Below are positions 6,023-44,533 of a stretch of DNA of 44,533 bases, in pieces. Numbering within the stretch: position 1 is the stretch's first letter; every line of letters begins with the position of its first letter. The notes below the pieces were generated by a model. It was not told the origin of the DNA and made no database searches. It saw nothing but the letters and a program-made list of their open reading frames with translations. A program made the position numbers and the translations under genes. The stretch is from Paludibacteraceae bacterium. Lineage in GTDB: Bacteria > Bacteroidota > Bacteroidia > Bacteroidales > Paludibacteraceae. The stretch covers positions 1 to 44,533 of the forward strand of contig JAFVHA010000129.1 in the NCBI GenBank assembly GCA_017478035.1, in the 5' to 3' direction.

Positions 6023-6095
6023 GGTGCTATCGTCTAGTGGCCTAGGACAACGGCCTCTCACGCCGTAAACCCCGGTTCGAGTCCGGGTAGCACTA
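6023..6095 (+). tRNA. tRNA-Glu (anticodon CTC)
   Basis: Hand-folded cloverleaf: acceptor GGTGCTA/TAGCACT (G1-U72 wobble), D arm GTCT/GGAC, anticodon arm ACGGC-CTCTCAC-GCCGT, T arm CCCGG-TTCGAGT-CCGGG. CCA is not encoded. Confidence 0.85.
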
Positions 6096-7198: not shown

Positions 7199-7851
7199 TT
7201 TTTCGGTCCGCGTTTCTTCGGGAGCACCGTTCCCGTTTCCGCACACTCGATCATGTTTTCCAATATGACGCCAAAGCGCCATTCGATGGCGTTGTGCCAG
7301 GTCTTATCGGAGATGAAAGCCGAGAGCACACGTCCGAAGACAAGACGGAACTCATAATGTATGCGTGTCTGAGTGTCAGAAATTGGTTCTAATACCATAA
7401 CCATGTCCCCGCCTTCCAATATCGAACCGCTATAGGTCGCCTTCAGATGCGCTGTCAGCGGATAGGAGGCGTTCACCGGCCTCGTGAGCATGTATTTCGT
7501 ACCCAGATGCTGGTCCTTCCACCAGCGTACTCCAAGCACATAGATATCCACAGCCACGTCACCTGTCTTGAGTTTGGGATCATACACACGGTCCTTATAG
7601 CGCAACTGGATAGCATCCCTACTCTCTTTGGTCTTCGGTTCAGACGGTTCTTCGGCTAATCCCAAATATGCCCATTCGAACAAGGAGTCAGGGCATGCTT
7701 GAAACTGTCGACAGAAACGATTGGTAACAGTCAACATTTGCTTCAAAGGGGCATTACAGACCGTATCGATAATTACTTCGCGTCGCTGTGGGCGCGCAAA
7801 AACACTGAGACTAACCGTCATCAGCATTAGAAACACAAGTGTTTTTCTCAT
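7195..7851 (-). CDS. secreted hypothetical protein (possibly SRPBCC/START-like fold)
   Basis: Signal peptide MRKTLVFLMLMTVSLSVFA. Coding-like ORF; its start overlaps the stop of the upstream gene by 4 nt. Confidence 0.5.
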   Translation of the reverse strand: MRKTLVFLMLMTVSLSVFARPQRREVIIDTVCNAPLKQMLTVTNRFCRQFQACPDSLFEWAYLGLAEEPSEPKTKESRDAIQLRYKDRVYDPKLKTGDVAVDIYVLGVRWWKDQHLGTKYMLTRPVNASYPLTAHLKATYSGSILEGGDMVMVLEPISDTQTRIHYEFRLVFGRVLSAFISDKTWHNAIEWRFGVILENMIECAETGTVLPKKRGPKN

Positions 7852-8194: not shown

Positions 8195-8872
8195 GGCCGT
8201 ATAGACCGTGGCTATTCCAAAGGTAAGAGGAGTGAATTGTTCCGTACTAAAACCGGCTTCACGCATATGCTGCAGAAACTGCTCGCCCCAACAAAAAGAT
8301 TTCACGCTCTTATTGAGGTACGTGTACGCTGTCTTGTCCCGGCTCACGACACGCCCGATGAACGGCAACACGCGCGTAAAATATATATCGTAACACGCGC
8401 GCACGGGAGGATTGGAGGGATAAGAGAATTCCAGTATCGTCACTTGCCCTCCGGGCTTGAGCACGCGGTACATCTCACGCAGTCCTTCGTCCAGATTTTG
8501 GAAGTTCCGACACCCGAAAGCACAAGTCACAGCATCGAAGGTATTATCCTCAAACGACATCTGTTGCGCATTTCCGAAGACGAAATCCACTCCTTTCAAT
8601 CCCAATCGTTCCACTTTCTCCTTCCCTATCGCCATCATCTGTCGGGACAAATCCAAACCGGTCACTTGTTCCGCCTTACCACACTGCAGCATCTCGATTG
8701 CCAGATCGGCAGTACCGATTGCAACGTCCAACACATGTCGGACAGACGGCATCTTCGCTACCGTCTTCTTGCGCCAGCGACGGTCTATATTCAGCGACAG
8801 ACCATGATTCAAGCCGTCGTAAGTACCCGCAATACGGTCAAATAATTGTCCGATATGTTGCTTTTCTTCCAT
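8183..8872 (-). CDS. ubiE: demethylmenaquinone / ubiquinone C-methyltransferase
   Basis: FDRIAGTYDGLN and VLDVAIGTADLA SAM-methyltransferase motifs. Start set at ATG 8872 because the -7 box at 8883-8890 lies inside the longer ORF. Confidence 0.85.
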   Translation of the reverse strand: MEEKQHIGQLFDRIAGTYDGLNHGLSLNIDRRWRKKTVAKMPSVRHVLDVAIGTADLAIEMLQCGKAEQVTGLDLSRQMMAIGKEKVERLGLKGVDFVFGNAQQMSFEDNTFDAVTCAFGCRNFQNLDEGLREMYRVLKPGGQVTILEFSYPSNPPVRACYDIYFTRVLPFIGRVVSRDKTAYTYLNKSVKSFCWGEQFLQHMREAGFSTEQFTPLTFGIATVYTALKS

Positions 8873-40139: not shown

Positions 40140-41336
40140 TTAGTATAGGAAGCCAACAATCCATAACGGCAGTTTATTGCCATAAGGATAGTCAATATCG
40201 TCCGCCAGTATATATGAGTCAGGCACTCCGGCTATCTGCTTGAAGACCTTACTCGGACCACCTACTTCAAACGTATATTTGCCATCTACTTTGAAATCAC
40301 CTTTCTTCTTCCCATATTCCACTTCGTGTCCTACACATAATTGATTGACGGCGAAAGTCTCGCGCAACGTACCTTCCTTAATAGGATGTGTAGCAAGCGC
40401 ACACAGCATATTTGTATTGTCGATATAGATCTTATCCGGCTTCTGCATCTTCTTGACGTTCAGCAAATCACTATAAAGCAGATTCAACAACCTGGCATCG
40501 TTCAAGAACTTGAGATATGACAAAACAGTTGGCCGCTGCAGCGCGCTTTGTACCGACATCTTGGAAATATCCACTTCGTATGGTTCGCTGGCTGCTAAGA
40601 TATTCATCAGTGCCCGAATCTTCCTTGTATTCTCCAATTCTACCTTGCATATCCGTGGCAACTCTTCCTCTATCACGTACCGCACAACTTTGTTAATCAA
40701 TGCGTAGTACTCCACGGGATTATTCTTGTAATATGGATAATAGCCGTATTTGAGGTATTTATCGAAATAGGCCATCGGCTTGCAGTGCTTGTAGATTTGT
40801 TCGATGAATGAGTGCAAATCCTTGAAGTCCTCTAACGAACAAGTAGGCAAGTCTATTCCTTCGTAGAACTGAAGATATTCCCGAAAACTAAGTCCCGGAA
40901 TGTCATAGTCCATACACCGCCGCGACAAGTCCGCTTCACCTTTTGTAAGCTCCAGCAACGAACTGCCGCTGATGACCACTTTTAGATCCGGATAATAATC
41001 ATTGATCTCCTTAATCTCCCTGCCCCAATTGAGATATTTGTGTATCTCATCCAAGAATAGGTGTTTGCCGCCCATCCGATAGAATTGCTCTGCCAAATCC
41101 AAAATGGAATGATCCACAAAATAATTGGCATCCAATGAACAATACAATGCCGTTTGATCCTTCTTCGCGTAATGATTCCGGATGTACTGCCGTATAATAG
41201 TCGATTTACCGACACCGCGTGCACCGCGGATAGCAATCAACTGCTGATCCCAATTGATTTTAGATGCACATTGCCGCACAATCTTCATTGGCGTCAAGTT
41301 CAATAACTGTGCTTGAAGTTGAAATAACCGTTGCAT
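40140..41336 (-). CDS. AAA+ ATPase with DUF4143-type C-terminal domain
   Basis: Walker A GARGVGKST, Walker B LFLDEIH, about 400 aa. Sampled lines are A+T-richer than neighbouring genes. Confidence 0.75.
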   Translation of the reverse strand: MQRLFQLQAQLLNLTPMKIVRQCASKINWDQQLIAIRGARGVGKSTIIRQYIRNHYAKKDQTALYCSLDANYFVDHSILDLAEQFYRMGGKHLFLDEIHKYLNWGREIKEINDYYPDLKVVISGSSLLELTKGEADLSRRCMDYDIPGLSFREYLQFYEGIDLPTCSLEDFKDLHSFIEQIYKHCKPMAYFDKYLKYGYYPYYKNNPVEYYALINKVVRYVIEEELPRICKVELENTRKIRALMNILAASEPYEVDISKMSVQSALQRPTVLSYLKFLNDARLLNLLYSDLLNVKKMQKPDKIYIDNTNMLCALATHPIKEGTLRETFAVNQLCVGHEVEYGKKKGDFKVDGKYTFEVGGPSKVFKQIAGVPDSYILADDIDYPYGNKLPLWIVGFLY

Positions 41337-41454: not shown

Positions 41455-41491
41455 TTTTTTAGTTTAGAGTTGAGAGATGAGAGTTTTGAGA
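41455..41491. repeat. TTTAGAG/TTGAGAG word array
   Basis: TTTTTTAGTTTAGAGTTGAGAGATGAGAGTTTTGAGA. Same family and same flanks as 22706-22774. Confidence 0.85.
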
Positions 41492-41520
41492 TAAAAAAAG
41501 CCTCCCCGAAGGGAGACTTT
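41492..41520 (-). terminator. rho-independent terminator ending the small-ORF island
   Basis: - strand: AAAGTCTCCC-ttcg-GGGAGGCTTTTTTT. Confidence 0.8.
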
Positions 41521-41522
41521 GA

Positions 41523-41562
41523 GCCAATAGCCAATAGCCAATGGCTAATAGCCGCTTTAGCC
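41523..41562. repeat. tandem 7-nt word GCCAATA
   Basis: GCCAATA GCCAATA GCCAATG GCTAATA GCCGCTTTAGCC. Overlaps the stop of the 41557 gene. Confidence 0.9.
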
Positions 41563-41943
41563 TTGTGGATGCGCGGCGTCGTACGTGGCCATCTCGAGGC
41601 TCCACAGGTACTTTTTCATGGTCTTCTTGCCGCCCGGTTGGTCTTTCTGGGCATTGAAGGCAATCTGATCCTGGGTCATCTGCGTCAGGTCCTGTGCACG
41701 GGCCGCTACTGCGGTAGCTACGGCCGTGAAGCGGTTGCGGATATCGCGCTCGTGAGCGGAGATCGGCGTGCTGCGTTTCACTTGCTTGCGCAGGTAAAGA
41801 CGGTTACACTTCGGGTTGGTGGTCGCTGCTACACGATGCGTGCCGAGCAACATCTTTTCACAACTGTGTTGGGGATTCGATCCCGGTTTGCTCAATGCGC
41901 CGGATACGCTGTCTATTCCGGCACTCCATACTACATTTGCCAT
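41557..41943 (-). CDS. small protein, paralog family member 1 (128 aa)
   Basis: Starts MANVVWSAGIDSVSGAL. Shares this N-terminal motif with 42343, 43766 and (weakly) 41997, and an Ala-rich C-terminal segment with 41997. Confidence 0.6.
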   Translation of the reverse strand: MANVVWSAGIDSVSGALSKPGSNPQHSCEKMLLGTHRVAATTNPKCNRLYLRKQVKRSTPISAHERDIRNRFTAVATAVAARAQDLTQMTQDQIAFNAQKDQPGGKKTMKKYLWSLEMATYDAAHPQG

Positions 41944-41989
41944 AATCTTTAATCTCTAAACGTTAAACTTTCAACTGTCAACTCTCACC
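41944..41989. repeat. TAA-bearing 7-nt words
   Basis: AATCTTTAATCTCTAAACGTTAAACTTTCAACTGTCAACTC. TAA recurs at 7-nt steps. Confidence 0.8.
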
Positions 41990-41996
41990 TGCCGAA

Positions 41997-42314
41997 TTAG
42001 TTAAAATTCGGCTTCACGTACTTCTGTGCGACGGTGTACGCGAACAAACTCGTGTACTTCGATTGCGCAGCAAAACCTGCTTCGAGTGTCGCGCGTTCGG
42101 TCGGGTCTGCAAGGGCAGTCTTGGCGGCTTGCGCTGCAGTTTTCAGTGCATTCTGGCACTGTACGTTCTTCGTGTGCTTCGCCTTGCTCGGGTTGATTAA
42201 GTCAACACCTAACTGCTCTTTCTTGCACGGACAGCCTTTGAAATACAGGCTCTCCGACTTGTTGAATTTGCCCCTTACCCGGGCAAACATGCCATGTAAT
42301 GTAATCTTAGCCAT
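41997..42314 (-). CDS. small basic protein, paralog family member 2 (105 aa)
   Basis: Starts MAKITLHGMFARVRGKF. C-terminal A-x-A...DPT...F-AAQ-K segment resembles that of 41557. Confidence 0.55.
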   Translation of the reverse strand: MAKITLHGMFARVRGKFNKSESLYFKGCPCKKEQLGVDLINPSKAKHTKNVQCQNALKTAAQAAKTALADPTERATLEAGFAAQSKYTSLFAYTVAQKYVKPNFN

Positions 42315-42315
42315 T

Positions 42316-42357
42316 GCGTTAATTCATTAATTCGTTAAACGTTCATTCGTTAAACGG
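42316..42357. repeat. TTAATTC / GTTAAACG words
   Basis: GCGTTAATTCATTAATTCGTTAAACGTTCATTCGTTAAACGG. Confidence 0.8.
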
Positions 42358-42606
42358 CAGTTCCAACTGCCCTTTCATCGTGCGTTCGAGGAACGCGAGG
42401 TGCTTCTGACGACCAAAGAGGTCGGCGAAGACGATACGGGTGTGTTGTTCGGCGGCGGTGGGAGTATGACCCGATCGGTCGGGACGGGCTTGAACGATAT
42501 GCATCACGCCGTCTTTGCTTGGATAGCGGCGGATATAGAAAGGGTCTGTTCCCATCAGAATGCCGGTCACGGACTCAATCCCCGGGTCAAACTCTACCTT
42601 TGCCAT
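42343..42606 (-). CDS. small protein, paralog family member 3 (87 aa)
   Basis: Starts MAKVEFDPGIESVTGIL. Confidence 0.55.
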   Translation of the reverse strand: MAKVEFDPGIESVTGILMGTDPFYIRRYPSKDGVMHIVQARPDRSGHTPTAAEQHTRIVFADLFGRQKHLAFLERTMKGQLELPFNE

Positions 42607-42610
42607 AATT

Positions 42611-42660
42611 GGGGTCCTCGAAAATTTTTAATTTTTGGGGAGAGCGAGAGCCTAACGTAG
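42611..42660 (-). other. GGGG/CCCC-clamped hairpin motif, copy A
   Basis: GGGGTCCTCGAAAATTTTTAATTTTTGGGGAGAGCG..CGTAG. 10-bp stem, 42616-42625 paired with 42631-42640. Ends 4 nt from the ATG at 42606. Confidence 0.7.
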
Positions 42661-42694
42661 TGCTATACAAGGGCTGTGCCCGTAGTCGCACGAG

Positions 42695-42859
42695 TTAGAG
42701 CTTGCGCGATGCATCATAACTCTCGATGGTCTTGGTCTGAATCGTGACGGACGTGTCACCGCGTTGGTAAAACTCCGACCGGTTGGTGATGGTGCGTACC
42801 ACATTGCACGAACTCAGTCCCACCCCCGCTATTACAATAATGGTAATCGTTATTACCAT
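42695..42859 (-). CDS. 54-aa putative lipoprotein
   Basis: MVITITIIVIAGVGLSSC has a lipobox. Short start preferred because hairpin copy B and word repeats fill the upstream part of the 111-aa ORF, which starts with TTG. Confidence 0.45.
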   Translation of the reverse strand: MVITITIIVIAGVGLSSCNVVRTITNRSEFYQRGDTSVTIQTKTIESYDASRKL

Positions 42860-42900
42860 GGGGCCCCCGAAAATTTTACATTTTTGGGGAAAGCGTAGGG
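42860..42900 (-). other. GGGG/CCCC-clamped hairpin motif, copy B
   Basis: GGGGCCCCCGAAAATTTTACATTTTTGGGGAAAGCGTAGGG. 10-bp stem, 42865-42874 paired with 42880-42889. Abuts the ATG at 42859. Confidence 0.7.
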
Positions 42901-43037
42901 CAAGGCGAAAGATCCCATGAGCGACGTGGTCGCGAATCGTTCTGAGCCTTAGCCTAAGCGTGGAGATGATGATTTTGATGATTTGTTGCTTGTTCATAAC
43001 TGTTGTGATTTTTTGTTCGACGAGGGACAATATAAAT

Positions 43038-43060
43038 AGTGGGGCGAAAGTTGCCCCACT
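43038..43060 (-). terminator. hairpin, possible terminator after the 43097 gene
   Basis: AGTGGGGC-gaaagtt-GCCCCACT, a perfect 8-bp stem. On the - strand it is followed by ATTTATATT. Confidence 0.5.
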
Positions 43061-43096
43061 TTGCTACAGAAATACGTGTAATTTTTTTTACTTGTT

Positions 43097-43399
43097 TCAA
43101 ATTTGGTCGGAATTTGTCACCTCTAAACGTATCTCTTCACGCGTTGATTGAATGACTTGGAGATAGGCTTCGACTTCTCTTCGAGTTTGACGATTAGGCC
43201 ATAGCCATTGTGTTCGTTTTCCTTGAAGCCATATCCCTGAATGGGGAATGGTAACGCGATAGATGAGTTCAAGCGGTACTTCGTCGAGCGGGAGGTAGAC
43301 TTCCGCCAACTTTTTGTCACCGAAGATATGGTTTGTTTCTATCAGTACGGCATGTACGCCGTAACGTGTCTCTTTCGTTTTAATAAGAGTTAGTAACAT
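43097..43399 (-). CDS. hypothetical protein (100 aa)
   Basis: ATG 43399 is preceded by an A-rich leader. The longer GTG-initiated ORF would read through hairpin copy C. Confidence 0.5.
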   Translation of the reverse strand: MLLTLIKTKETRYGVHAVLIETNHIFGDKKLAEVYLPLDEVPLELIYRVTIPHSGIWLQGKRTQWLWPNRQTRREVEAYLQVIQSTREEIRLEVTNSDQI

Positions 43400-43420
43400 G
43401 TCTTTTATCTTTTCTTTTTT

Positions 43421-43480
43421 AGGGTCCCCGATGTAACTCGTAGAGTTGCAGTGGGGAAAGCGTAGATCAAAACGTAGGCG
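43421..43480 (-). other. GGGG/CCCC-clamped hairpin motif, copy C
   Basis: AGGGTCCCCG-ATGTAACTCGTAGAGTTGCAG-TGGGGAAAGCGTAG. Same flanks as copy B but a different inner stem (TGTAACTC/GAGTTGCA). Confidence 0.65.
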
Positions 43481-43520
43481 TAATCGAGCGGCTGGGCTGC
43501 GAGTCACGCGCAGTTTTAGA

Positions 43521-43706
43521 TCAAGCTATGTCAATAACATAATGCTCACAAATTATTTTTACCAGTTGCCCGGGTAGTTTGTATTTTTTACTTAGTGGAT
43601 ATTTCGCCAACTGCTCTTGCATGTACGGTTCTTCTAACCAGCGGCGGAGAGTCCACCTGCTCACCCCTGCGTAGCGTGCCAATTGGCTTTTGGTCATTGC
43701 TCTCAT
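43521..43706 (-). CDS. small helix-turn-helix protein (DUF4248-like / excisionase-like)
   Basis: TKSQLARYAGVSRWTLRRWL HTH segment, about 61 aa. ATG at 43706 or 43697. Confidence 0.5.
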   Translation of the reverse strand: MRAMTKSQLARYAGVSRWTLRRWLEEPYMQEQLAKYPLSKKYKLPGQLVKIICEHYVIDIA

Positions 43707-43765
43707 AATCAATCTGTACTCAGTATTCTGTATTCTGTCAGTGCAACGATCCTACAACGCGACCA

Positions 43766-43945
43766 TCACGGGACCATCTCCCAAGATTGTCCCGAGGACG
43801 ATACAGGCGGATACCAAGTACGCTTGTAGATTGTTCCCCTCTTGGTTGCAACGATGGTTTCCACATGTCCGTCGGAGAACCGTTTGCGGCTGATGACGCC
43901 CGAGATGGATTTAAACGGTGCGTCTAATGTATAATGAAGTGCCAT
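43766..43945 (-). CDS. 59-aa ORF absent from the ORF track, paralog family member 4
   Basis: Hand translation: MALHYTLDAPFKSISGVISRKRFSDGHVETIVATKRGTIYKRTWYPPVSSSGQSWEMVP. Shares the MA...[GP][IF]xS[VI][ST]Gx[LI] motif. Confidence 0.5.
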   Translation of the reverse strand: MALHYTLDAPFKSISGVISRKRFSDGHVETIVATKRGTIYKRTWYPPVSSSGQSWEMVP

Positions 43946-43957
43946 AATCTTTAAACT

Positions 43958-44281
43958 TTAATCTTTAACATAAATCACTTTGTTGCCGGTGGGGTTTTCC
44001 ATGTGCCAGCCATCATGCGGTTCGGTGGTGCCGTAACGGGCGTAATAGTCGGCGTAGGAAAGGGTTTGGCGGCGTGCCTTTCGCAGGTTCTCTTTGATGG
44101 CGCGTATTGGGTCGTATTGAACGAACTTATCTTCCCGTAATTTAGTACTGATGGTGGTAAAGACCTGACGTTGTTGTTCGGGTGATAACGTCGCCCAATA
44201 ACGTCGTGTTCCTTCCTCCTTCTTTGCACTCGCACCATGGTCATAGAGCATTGCCCATAGGGCATTAAATAAATCTTCCAT
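43958..44281 (-). CDS. hypothetical protein (107 aa from ATG 44281)
   Basis: MEDLFNALWAMLYDHG... First gene of the island within this window. No family recognised. Confidence 0.5.
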   Translation of the reverse strand: MEDLFNALWAMLYDHGASAKKEEGTRRYWATLSPEQQRQVFTTISTKLREDKFVQYDPIRAIKENLRKARRQTLSYADYYARYGTTEPHDGWHMENPTGNKVIYVKD

Positions 44282-44292
44282 AAAATAAAGTT

Positions 44293-44335
44293 GGTGGTGG
44301 TAAGGTAATAGCATTGTATACACTCTACCACCACC
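44293..44335. other. perfect 10-bp inverted repeat
   Basis: GGTGGTGGTA-N23-TACCACCACC, 12 nt upstream of the ATG at 44281. Confidence 0.8.
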
Positions 44336-44467
44336 TTCACCTTTTTTCTTTTATAATTTTCTTTGGTTACTTTCTTTTATCGCTTTCTTTTGCAAGCTGT
44401 GAGGTTATAAGTCCCTCCCTTGGACGTTTATAGCCTTCGCTCTGCGAGCGATATAGTATGTACCCGG

Positions 44468-44529
44468 CTGGAACATTCTTTTGCGGTTGGGGTCCGCAAA
44501 AGCATGAACGGGGGACACCGTGGTTCCAG
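44468..44529. other. nested stem structure at the window edge
   Basis: Outer CTGGAAC (44468-44474) pairs with GTTCCAG (44523-44529). Inner CTTTTGCGG-ttggggt-CCGCAAAAG at 44478-44502. Confidence 0.6.
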
Positions 44530-44533
44530 AGGG

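Follow-up and report, generated by a model that had tools for sequence, protein, structure and literature searches.

A nine-gene operon of small proteins in a Paludibacteraceae genome and its multi-copy, mosaic relatives in gut Bacteroidales

Introduction

Why should a row of eight small genes, all read in one direction, stand without a promoter in a stretch of DNA whose other transcription units have one? The question is raised by positions 41557-44340 of a stretch of 44,533 nucleotides (nt), hereafter the window, on contig JAFVHA010000129.1 of a Paludibacteraceae bacterium (assembly GCA_017478035.1). An initial annotation described this region as an island of eight minus-strand open reading frames (ORFs), four of them paralogs, with a structured motif in place of promoters in the spacers. 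It was considered a possible distal end of an integrated element. We have followed the island beyond the end of the window and into related genomes, where it appears as one copy of a widespread gene module.

The operon and its genes

The source scaffold, 76 kb long and from a ruminant gut metagenome, runs 871 nt past the end of the window. The extension of the contig beyond position 44533, which had been proposed in the initial annotation, gave a ninth minus-strand gene, o9 (133 amino acids, aa; window-equivalent 44580-44981), together with its promoter. The sequence upstream of o9, ctttttGCAGTACCTTTGCAcc, contains a perfect Bacteroidetes -7 box, TAcCTTTG, at window-equivalent ~45137-45144, about 600 nt past the window end. 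The box lies within the 14-mer GCAGTACCTTTGCA, which two promoters inside the window also contain. Going upstream, the first TTTG stands 24 nt from the box, one nt beyond the range of 17-23 that was searched, and the -33 element is thus atypical here; in some other copies, as read from their sequences, it is seemingly missing. The position of the -7 box is constant in every related copy examined, and in six other copies the box and a short leader, ccgGaTTTCGAAAg, stand directly 5' of o9 or o8. Right behind the box of the present copy (L001:273-315, past the window) there is a short hairpin with a T-run, caccgtctttcgaaagagaggcggtgctttattttt, a possible attenuator in the leader or small RNA.

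Within the window, the pattern TTTG-N17-23-TAnnTTTG occurs 11 times, with 0.66 expected, and none of these occurrences falls within 41557-44533, in agreement with what had been seen by eye. This absence is a window-edge effect rather than a property of the island, because o9 and the -7 box sit beyond the window end. On the other side, the strong terminator reported at 41492-41520 was confirmed at 41497-41520, and many related copies have a similar hairpin and T-run downstream of o1. With o9 and the -7 box at one end and this terminator at the other, the island is therefore, as judged from the sequence, the greater part, cut off at the window end, of a 3.7-kb operon of nine genes, o9-o8-o7-o6-o5-o4-o3-o2-o1. 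When the window module is compared with all other copies, similarity starts at the promoter (L001:219) and nothing matches farther upstream. Complete relatives are self-contained units of ~3.5-6 kb, which speaks against the earlier suggestion that the body of an element lies beyond 44533. The parts of the operon inside the window are listed below, where F denotes a protein superfamily defined in this analysis and pI the isoelectric point.

41497..41520, minus strand: intrinsic terminator closing the operon, 10-bp stem and T-run
41557..41943, minus strand: o1, F-family protein of 128 aa, F128 subfamily, pI 10.0 (3973 homologs)
41997..42314, minus strand: o2, F-family protein of 105 aa, F105 subfamily, pI 9.8, dN/dS 0.07 (491 homologs, 84-92% identity)
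42343..42606, minus strand: o3, F-family protein of 87 aa, F87 subfamily (441 homologs)
42695..42859, minus strand: o4, small lipoprotein predicted from the sequence, lipobox LSSC, mature part ~35 aa
43097..43399, minus strand: o5, conserved 100-aa protein of no known family (orthologs, dN/dS)
43521..43706, minus strand: o6, small helix-turn-helix (HTH) protein of 61 aa, probable regulator (sub-threshold matches)
43766..43945, minus strand: o7, F-family protein of 59 aa, N-terminal half only (linked via the F119 subfamily)
43958..44281, minus strand: o8, conserved protein of ~107 aa (homolog alignments)

All eight ORFs of the initial annotation were found at or near their original coordinates. 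They are evidently real protein-coding genes under purifying selection, because non-synonymous differences from orthologs in other genomes lie far below the synonymous ones. The median dN/dS ranges from 0.07 to 0.26 across the ORFs, and pN is well below pS in all of them; for o7 only pN 0.26 and pS 0.89 could be computed, from two pairs. The ORFs had been expected to stand or fall by their conservation in related genomes, and conserved they are. Scans of all ORFs against Pfam, NCBIfam, PHROGs and PADLOC placed none in a family, except for a weak HTH match of o6, and the view that the island cannot be assigned to a known system still holds against these libraries. An ORF of 160 aa lies antisense to o1 (41470-41952, plus strand); it is most likely spurious, because the conservation pattern suits the minus-strand frame.

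The module in other genomes

A comparison with related genomes, which the initial annotation had also proposed, recovered the module at 359 loci in varied contexts when one genome per species was scanned. Of the 80 loci listed, nearly all bear the title Paludibacteraceae or that of unclassified Bacteroidales, and their samples are of rumen or other gut origin; the exceptions are one titled Lachnospiraceae and one Bacteroidia from pig. One metagenome-assembled genome (MAG) has at least eight copies and several have three or four. Copies within the eight-copy MAG share 70-96% identity, over o1 only, and unique DNA follows each of them. About 66 distinct downstream contexts were counted among ~90 loci, and many module matches begin 44-180 nt from a contig end.

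The clearest view of how these copies arise comes from a near-identical strain in another sample (L103), which has the identical downstream glycosyltransferase. Starting 1 nt before the o1 ATG and reading on from there, L103 and the window are 99.7% identical. Upstream of that point (L103:1-600) the two are unrelated: at the same chromosomal site L103 carries a different F gene, of 113 aa, and there it shares 97.8% identity with L097, a module found elsewhere in the chromosomal context. An o1 protein of 96% identity occurs in that other module, downstream of an island with SMC-like, Dnd-associated, ApeA-HEPN and WYL genes. Because the homology break in L103 sits 1 nt before the o1 ATG and a near-identical o1 is found in another module, the modules swap parts at gene boundaries, as phage genomes do. 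Taken as a whole, the sequences describe a multi-copy, gene-boundary-mosaic family which is confined to rumen and gut Paludibacteraceae/Bacteroidales. Copy number, the ~66 contexts and boundary mosaicism bear out the mobile-element character that had been suspected.

At least seven different chromosomal contexts preserve the order o9-o8-(F)-HTH-o5-lipoprotein-F87-F105-F128, among them sites beside FtsK, beside HU/adk/obg, beside a SIR2/TIR-nSTAND island and before a 3361-aa protein. The repertoire of 101 related loci, all on one strand, comprises an optional protein of ~330-358 aa, an optional HNH_3 endonuclease, o9 or a related coiled-coil protein, o8, an F, one of several small HTH-like proteins and an optional o5. 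These are joined by a holin-like protein with two transmembrane segments (2-TM) and/or small lipoproteins, an optional DUF5675 peptidase, and two or three F. The core of the family is formed by 2-4 F paralogs, the smalltalk-like lipoprotein, at least one small HTH protein and o8/o9. No modification enzymes or leader peptidase of ribosomally synthesized and post-translationally modified peptides were found in the module or its flanks.

Some of the optional genes are of phage type. The holin-like protein, present in many related copies, matches lysis-region genes of Bacteroides and Porphyromonas phages, where these stand beside a gene annotated as spanin. The DUF5675 peptidase, which occurs in 31 of the 101 loci, has homologs in Microviridae and crAss-like phages that are annotated there as transpeptidase or carboxypeptidase, and a 2026 preprint has grouped DUF5675 with C82-like peptidases among candidate phage lysins. 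The occurrence of DUF5675 in Microviridae prompted the idea of a microvirus provirus; it was rejected, since the capsid, pilot and Rep proteins of those genomes are absent here and nothing else is common to both. Five related loci have a DUF3987 helicase-like gene (Pfam E 3e-9) upstream in divergent orientation; such a gene is found neither in the window nor in the 871 nt beyond. A RAYT-like HUH protein is encoded upstream in five other loci.

The F superfamily

The superfamily was assembled by single-linkage BLASTP clustering of every plus-strand ORF around the o1 homolog in the 101 related loci, and the E-values between its members are relative to this small local database of 1649 ORFs. It has 267 members, ~2.6 per locus, and takes in o1, o2, o3 and o7. 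Within the window, only o1 and o3 are directly significant as a pair (11/24 N-terminal identities, E 1e-4); their family profiles align in hhalign with a probability of 87% (E 4e-6, 21 columns). The match of o3 to o2 is weak (E 8e-4), and direct comparison of o1 with o2 and of o3 with o7 gave nothing significant. The four are joined through bridging subfamilies, from o1-type to o3-type (E 1.4e-8), o3-type to F113 (8.6e-10) and F113 to o2-type (7e-13), and from o1-type to F119 (1.4e-9) and F119 to o7-type (6e-11). Hence the four-member paralog family of the initial annotation stands as a family connected by intermediates, by which all four ORFs are homologous, but not as a set of directly significant pairs.

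Both signatures that had been noticed by eye, the N-terminal MA..[IF].S.SG.[LI] motif and the C-terminal D[LP]T..F.AQ.K segment, were recovered in one multiple alignment. There, the N-terminal motif takes the form MA-x(5-8)-[IFL]-x-S-x-S/K-G-x-[ILVF] and is found in o1, o3 and o7 and, more weakly, in o2. The shared plan runs from this motif through a probable beta-hairpin and P-R-S-x-P-S-x2-E-x3-R-x2-F to helices ending in [FYW]-x2-Q-x-K. In its general form the central segment reads P-[RS]-x-x-P-[ST]-x-x-[EQ]-x3-[RQ]-x2-F and is followed by a helical bundle with [FYW]-x2-Q-x-K. The o3 protein has the N-terminal motif and the TP..A.E...R..F segment in common with o1 and is without the last C-terminal helices, and o7 is missing the whole C-terminal half. 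Invariant His and Cys residues lie in the N-terminal half of o1. In the AlphaFold2 (AF2) model of o1, residues 63-124 are helical with a predicted local distance difference test score (pLDDT) of ~90 and form a three-helix C-terminal bundle behind an N-terminal part of low confidence; the model of o2 has the same architecture, with an uncertain N-terminal part and a three-helix C-terminal bundle. Three of the four window members are basic (pI 9.8-10.0).

Among 1.8 billion proteins, the o1 family has 341 representatives at 50% identity, all small and none with a domain. F87 and F105 are 83-92% conserved across species. No F protein matched Pfam, NCBIfam or PHROGs. When the AF2 models of o1 and o2 were compared by Foldseek with the entries of PDB and BFVD, no match reached an E below 2, and profile searches of PDB sequences with the o1, o2, o3 and superfamily alignments returned nothing. 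A suspected likeness to DUF6266 was supported neither by Pfam nor by the literature and was dropped. As a separate observation, ATGGCAAAAGTAGAATGGAGTGCCGGTATC, within the first 30 nt of o1-type genes, is nearly invariant in its nucleotides at 82 loci, where the upstream sequences are unrelated. This constancy may reflect a constraint on translation initiation or a substrate for recombination.

The remaining genes

Two readings of the lipoprotein gene o4 are possible, one of 54 aa (start 42859) and one of 100 aa (start 42997). The long ORF is MNKQQIIKIIIST[35 aa]VITITIIVIAGVGLSSC, with a copy of the hairpin element described below in frame within the signal-peptide region (42860-42997). Its orthologs score 21-22 bits (E 1e-4) against the NCBIfam smalltalk model NF033879, which is below the cutoff of 24.7. 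The window o4 does not match this model because of the hairpin-element insertion. Neither phage records nor PHROGs gave a match to o4, and tblastn of the lipoprotein against phage and plasmid collections found nothing. The position of o4 moves between module copies.

For o6, the start is most likely the ATG at 43706, because homologs begin with MKAMTK. The earlier assignment of o6 as an HTH protein holds insofar as a match to HTH_3 exists, but this match is weak (E 6e-4, under the Pfam cutoff), and all HTH matches, including that to PADLOC mad1 (E 9e-6), are sub-threshold. Pfam DUF4248 was not among the matches of o6 at E up to 1. Alignments of o8 with its homologs begin at residue 3, which supports its start at 44281. 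In eight related loci, o8 is the C-terminal part of a protein of ~265 aa, whose N-terminal region is winged-HTH-like (HTH_36, E 0.009).

Spacers and the hairpin element

The recurrent structured motif of the spacers is a hairpin element of ~50-100 nt with the core CGCTCTCCCCAAAAATTAAAAATTTTCGGGGACCCC, present three times in the window module. The spacers hold the following features.

43400..43520, minus strand: o6-o5 spacer with hairpin-element copy A (~43425-43470); in relatives o6 and o5 overlap
42859..42965, minus strand: hairpin-element copy B, core 42859-42895, in frame in the long o4 signal-peptide region (repeat comparison)
42607..42694, minus strand: o4-o3 spacer with hairpin-element copy C, core 42610-42646; relatives have ~12 nt here
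43038..43060, minus strand: G+C-rich hairpin after o5 with a weak T-run (sequence fold), possibly an internal attenuator or RNA-stability element
44290..44345, minus strand: conserved hairpin GGTGGTGGTA...TACCACCACC upstream of o8, after the A-rich tract aaagaaagcgataaaagaaag; also in L006 and L009
44346..44533, minus strand: o9-o8 spacer, including a hairpin at 44474-44506; the spacer stretch recurs as a repeat in another genome (L080)
41523..41553, minus strand: degenerate 7-nt tandem repeat GGCTATT, ~3-4 units, from the o1 stop to the terminator; other copies have different heptamers there

By comparison with relatives, whose genes overlap or nearly abut at these places, the hairpin element has been inserted three times in this lineage. 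The idea of a spacer motif shared as a substitute for promoters therefore gives way to one of insertion. In other genomes the element is found at other gene boundaries and in either orientation (L083:7790-7840; upstream of o1 in L091, L094 and L101; reversed in L022, L032 and L037). It looks like a small mobile insertion of the repetitive extragenic palindrome (REP) or miniature inverted-repeat transposable element (MITE) type, and the spacers look like the product of such traffic together with intercistronic RNA structure, unlike attC sites. RAYT-like HUH genes lie close to some modules.

Degenerate 7-nt repeats flank F genes in the window (41523-41553, 41944-41996, 42315-42342 and 43946-43957) and at many other loci. 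The unit varies by copy (GGCTATT, TAATGGC, GTACCAA, ACGAATG, TTTAACA and others), and the inverted repeats that flank o1 are composed of such low-complexity heptamer words. Other spacers have unrelated hairpins immediately 5' of start codons. The hairpin upstream of o8 is found in the same arrangement in L006 (~7330-7405) and with changed stem bases in L009 (~8440-8490), and since it is kept there with different bases, a conserved RNA structure is suggested. Rfam scans of the window returned only a tRNA (6023-6095) and terminator-like noise.

Neighbouring genes

The gene downstream of the terminator (40140-41336) had been described as an A+T-richer AAA+/DUF4143 ATPase gene. This description is confirmed by its AAA_14 domain (E 6e-28), a sub-threshold match to DUF4143 and a G+C content of 0.43 compared with ~0.50. 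It matches the PADLOC candidate PDC-S01 (E 1e-25) and repeatedly adjoins the module elsewhere (8316-9617 in L012-L016, 7370-8353 in L010, 7140-8423 in L035); in one lineage it is inserted in reverse between o5 and o4. In the window, a GT2 gene follows it. Polysaccharide-synthesis genes (glycosyltransferases, epimerases, DegT) are found within 10 kb downstream in at least nine of 90 modules, namely L017, L033, L036, L040, L041, L055, L068, L069 and others. Defence genes are also frequent neighbours, among them Type III restriction-modification (R-M), AbiEii, SIR2/TIR-nSTAND and Dnd-associated/ApeA-HEPN/WYL genes.

Discussion

What kind of unit is this module? We tentatively read it as a cryptic element derived from a phage or phage satellite, which has no recombinase of its own and recombines between copies, and we hold this with a little less than even confidence. 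Such an element would persist and diversify by homologous recombination between its own copies and between strains. The HTH protein would control the operon, and the lipoprotein, together with the holin and the peptidase where these are present, would act on the cell envelope. The F paralogs might act together as nucleic-acid-binding or structural partner proteins, and the intercistronic hairpins might determine how stable the segments of the polycistronic mRNA are relative to one another. Taken together, the links to smalltalk, DUF3987 and RAYT-like genes suggest that the module may be the Paludibacteraceae counterpart of the smalltalk/DUF4248/HU/amidase/DUF3987 clusters of Bacteroides.

A number of observations weigh against a phage-derived element. 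In all annotated contexts, the source contig included, the 10 kb to each side held no integrase, transposase, terminase or capsid Pfam domain; for integrase and capsid this extends what the initial annotation had reported from the window. There is no association with tRNA genes, and integration targeted to them was therefore rejected. None of 18 small whole contigs was circular, and the F families were absent from INPHARED and PLSDB (tblastn) and from IMG/VR, the latter searched with three F alignments. No repeat was found at the promoter-side edge of the module, in a search that was not exhaustive for target-site duplications. The window copy itself has no holin, no DUF5675 peptidase and no HNH gene. 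The AF2 models of o1 and o2 are of modest overall confidence (pLDDT 66 and 61), and we infer the functions of F, o5, o8 and o9 from composition and context only. Finally, some chromosomal contexts are common to different species and the proteins show a housekeeping-like conservation, which fits a domesticated host function as well as a selfish element.

Other readings start from the same genes. The module could be a very small, self-contained element without a recombinase, or viriform, of 4-6 kb, or F could be cargo released via holin, peptidase and lipoprotein; we regard this pair of possibilities as unlikely. The viriform would have replication-type genes of its own (winged-HTH-o8, HNH, and DUF3987 or HUH neighbours) as well as its own lysis genes, and its three or four F paralogs, most of them basic, would package or coat nucleic acid. 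In a related proposal, the host has domesticated a holin/peptidoglycan-hydrolase release system, comparable to type 10 secretion or to bacteriocin lysis proteins, and the F proteins, which have no signal peptide, are its cargo, for example as polymorphic effectors. The holin-like, DUF5675 and lipoprotein genes stand directly beside F genes in many copies, F combines a conserved N-terminal motif with varied C-terminal parts, and the module is multi-copy and polymorphic, like many effector loci. Colicin lysis proteins, moreover, are similar in size to the ~35-aa mature lipoprotein. However, holin and peptidase are missing from the window copy and from most copies of its type, and scans with Pfam, NCBIfam and PADLOC found no immunity-like or toxin-like domain. 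The strong conservation of F87 and F105 across species is unlike that of diversifying effectors, and neither experiments nor databases lend the proposal support; we consider it, too, an unlikely explanation.

The neighbourhood of the module has to be weighed in the same way. Its position in or beside defence islands, the PDC-S01 candidate repeatedly adjacent to it or inserted into it, and the combination of small ORFs with a small HTH protein resembling mad1 would suit an anti-phage defence module, for instance one of abortive infection by triggered lysis, or an anti-defence operon under an Aca-like HTH protein. We judge this to be quite improbable, since the case is one of neighbourhood and the same neighbourhoods also hold polysaccharide loci and core genes; the module proteins have no PADLOC match beyond a generic HTH, and anti-defence proteins are rarely so conserved. 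Polysaccharide genes downstream in at least nine of the 90 loci, with a glycosyltransferase following in the window, could instead point to a regulatory or insulator module that heads variable polysaccharide or surface-protein loci, by a logic like that of the UpxY/UpxZ genes of Bacteroides capsule loci or of the DUF3987/DUF4248/HU/smalltalk/amidase clusters. The several copies per genome, as with capsule loci, and the smalltalk-like and DUF3987 links agree with this, and BT0706, an amidase gene, is listed near the DUF3987 gene BT0709 in B. thetaiotaomicron. Yet a strong terminator separates the module from the downstream genes, which have their own promoter; the downstream contexts are mostly unrelated core genes, no NusG-like gene was found, and the Pfam DUF4248 model fails to match o6. 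All this makes a regulatory module very unlikely. An integron-like array of promoterless cassettes with structured recombination sites, as in clusters of attC sites lacking integrase (CALIN), seems scarcely credible. In its favour, the small one-directional ORFs have no individual promoters, structured repeats lie in the spacers and o4 changes its position between copies. Against it, many genomes keep one fixed gene order, the paralogs are conserved together as a set and no flank contains an integrase. The spacers are heterogeneous, with heptamers and several unrelated hairpins in either orientation, and they disappear in relatives, in which the genes overlap or nearly abut.

The general kind of unit that we favour, a phage-derived mosaic module in variable genome regions, is already familiar. 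The F family and the module architecture are not described in the libraries or the literature searched. Thousands of F proteins are present in ruminant and gut metagenomes, and none is named, belongs to a Pfam family or has a structural relative. MAG assemblies break at the module, which also marks variable genome regions, defence islands and polysaccharide loci among them. An understanding of it would account for one recurring reason why Bacteroidales MAGs are fragmented. It would also help in approaching the smalltalk/DUF3987/amidase clusters of human-gut Bacteroides, which are equally uncharacterised, and might reveal a new minimal mobile element or protein-release system. If the viriform or cargo reading were true, F would represent a new class of structural or effector proteins, and rumen microbiomes would hold thousands of its members.

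Comparison with known systems

Integron cassette arrays share with the module the one-directional small ORFs, a single upstream promoter and structured spacers; the fixed synteny of the module and the absence of IntI and of attC-type sites are unlike them. The internal proteins of T4-type phages are small and have in common only an N-terminal capsid-targeting sequence. Only the logic of such loci, several small proteins in one locus that have a short N-terminal motif in common and otherwise differ, can be recognised here. The F proteins are homologous beyond the motif, they show no sequence similarity to the internal proteins, and a prohead protease or capsid is not found with them.

Phage satellites and cryptic prophages, such as phage-inducible chromosomal islands (PICI) and P4-like elements, are likewise small and multi-copy, have HTH regulators, exchange parts as mosaics and lie near defence genes. 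The replication-type neighbours of the module (DUF3987, the winged-HTH fusion, HNH) add to this likeness. Unlike these elements, the module has no integrase, attachment (att) sites, homologs of capsid-redirection or terminase proteins, or presence in viral databases. The lysis cassettes of Bacteroidales phages resemble the related copies with the 2-TM holin-like protein, the DUF5675 peptidase and small lipoproteins. In contrast, the window copy has the lipoprotein only, without holin or endolysin, and in the module the cassette, with its predicted lytic role, is surrounded by F, o8/o9 and HTH genes, without any virion genes in the vicinity.

The last comparison is with uncharacterised clusters of Bacteroides and Porphyromonas, which we take to comprise genes for DUF3987, DUF4248, an HU-like protein, smalltalk and an N-acetylmuramoyl-L-alanine amidase. 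Our literature search found no paper that gives the Bacteroides clusters a function. In the module, DUF5675 replaces the amidase and F proteins stand in place of the HU-like protein; o4 orthologs match smalltalk below its threshold and the window o4 does not match it, and DUF4248 does not match o6, where the likeness is a lead only. What the two have in common is that both are multi-copy and bring together a small lipoprotein, a small HTH protein, a cell-wall hydrolase and a divergent DUF3987 gene.

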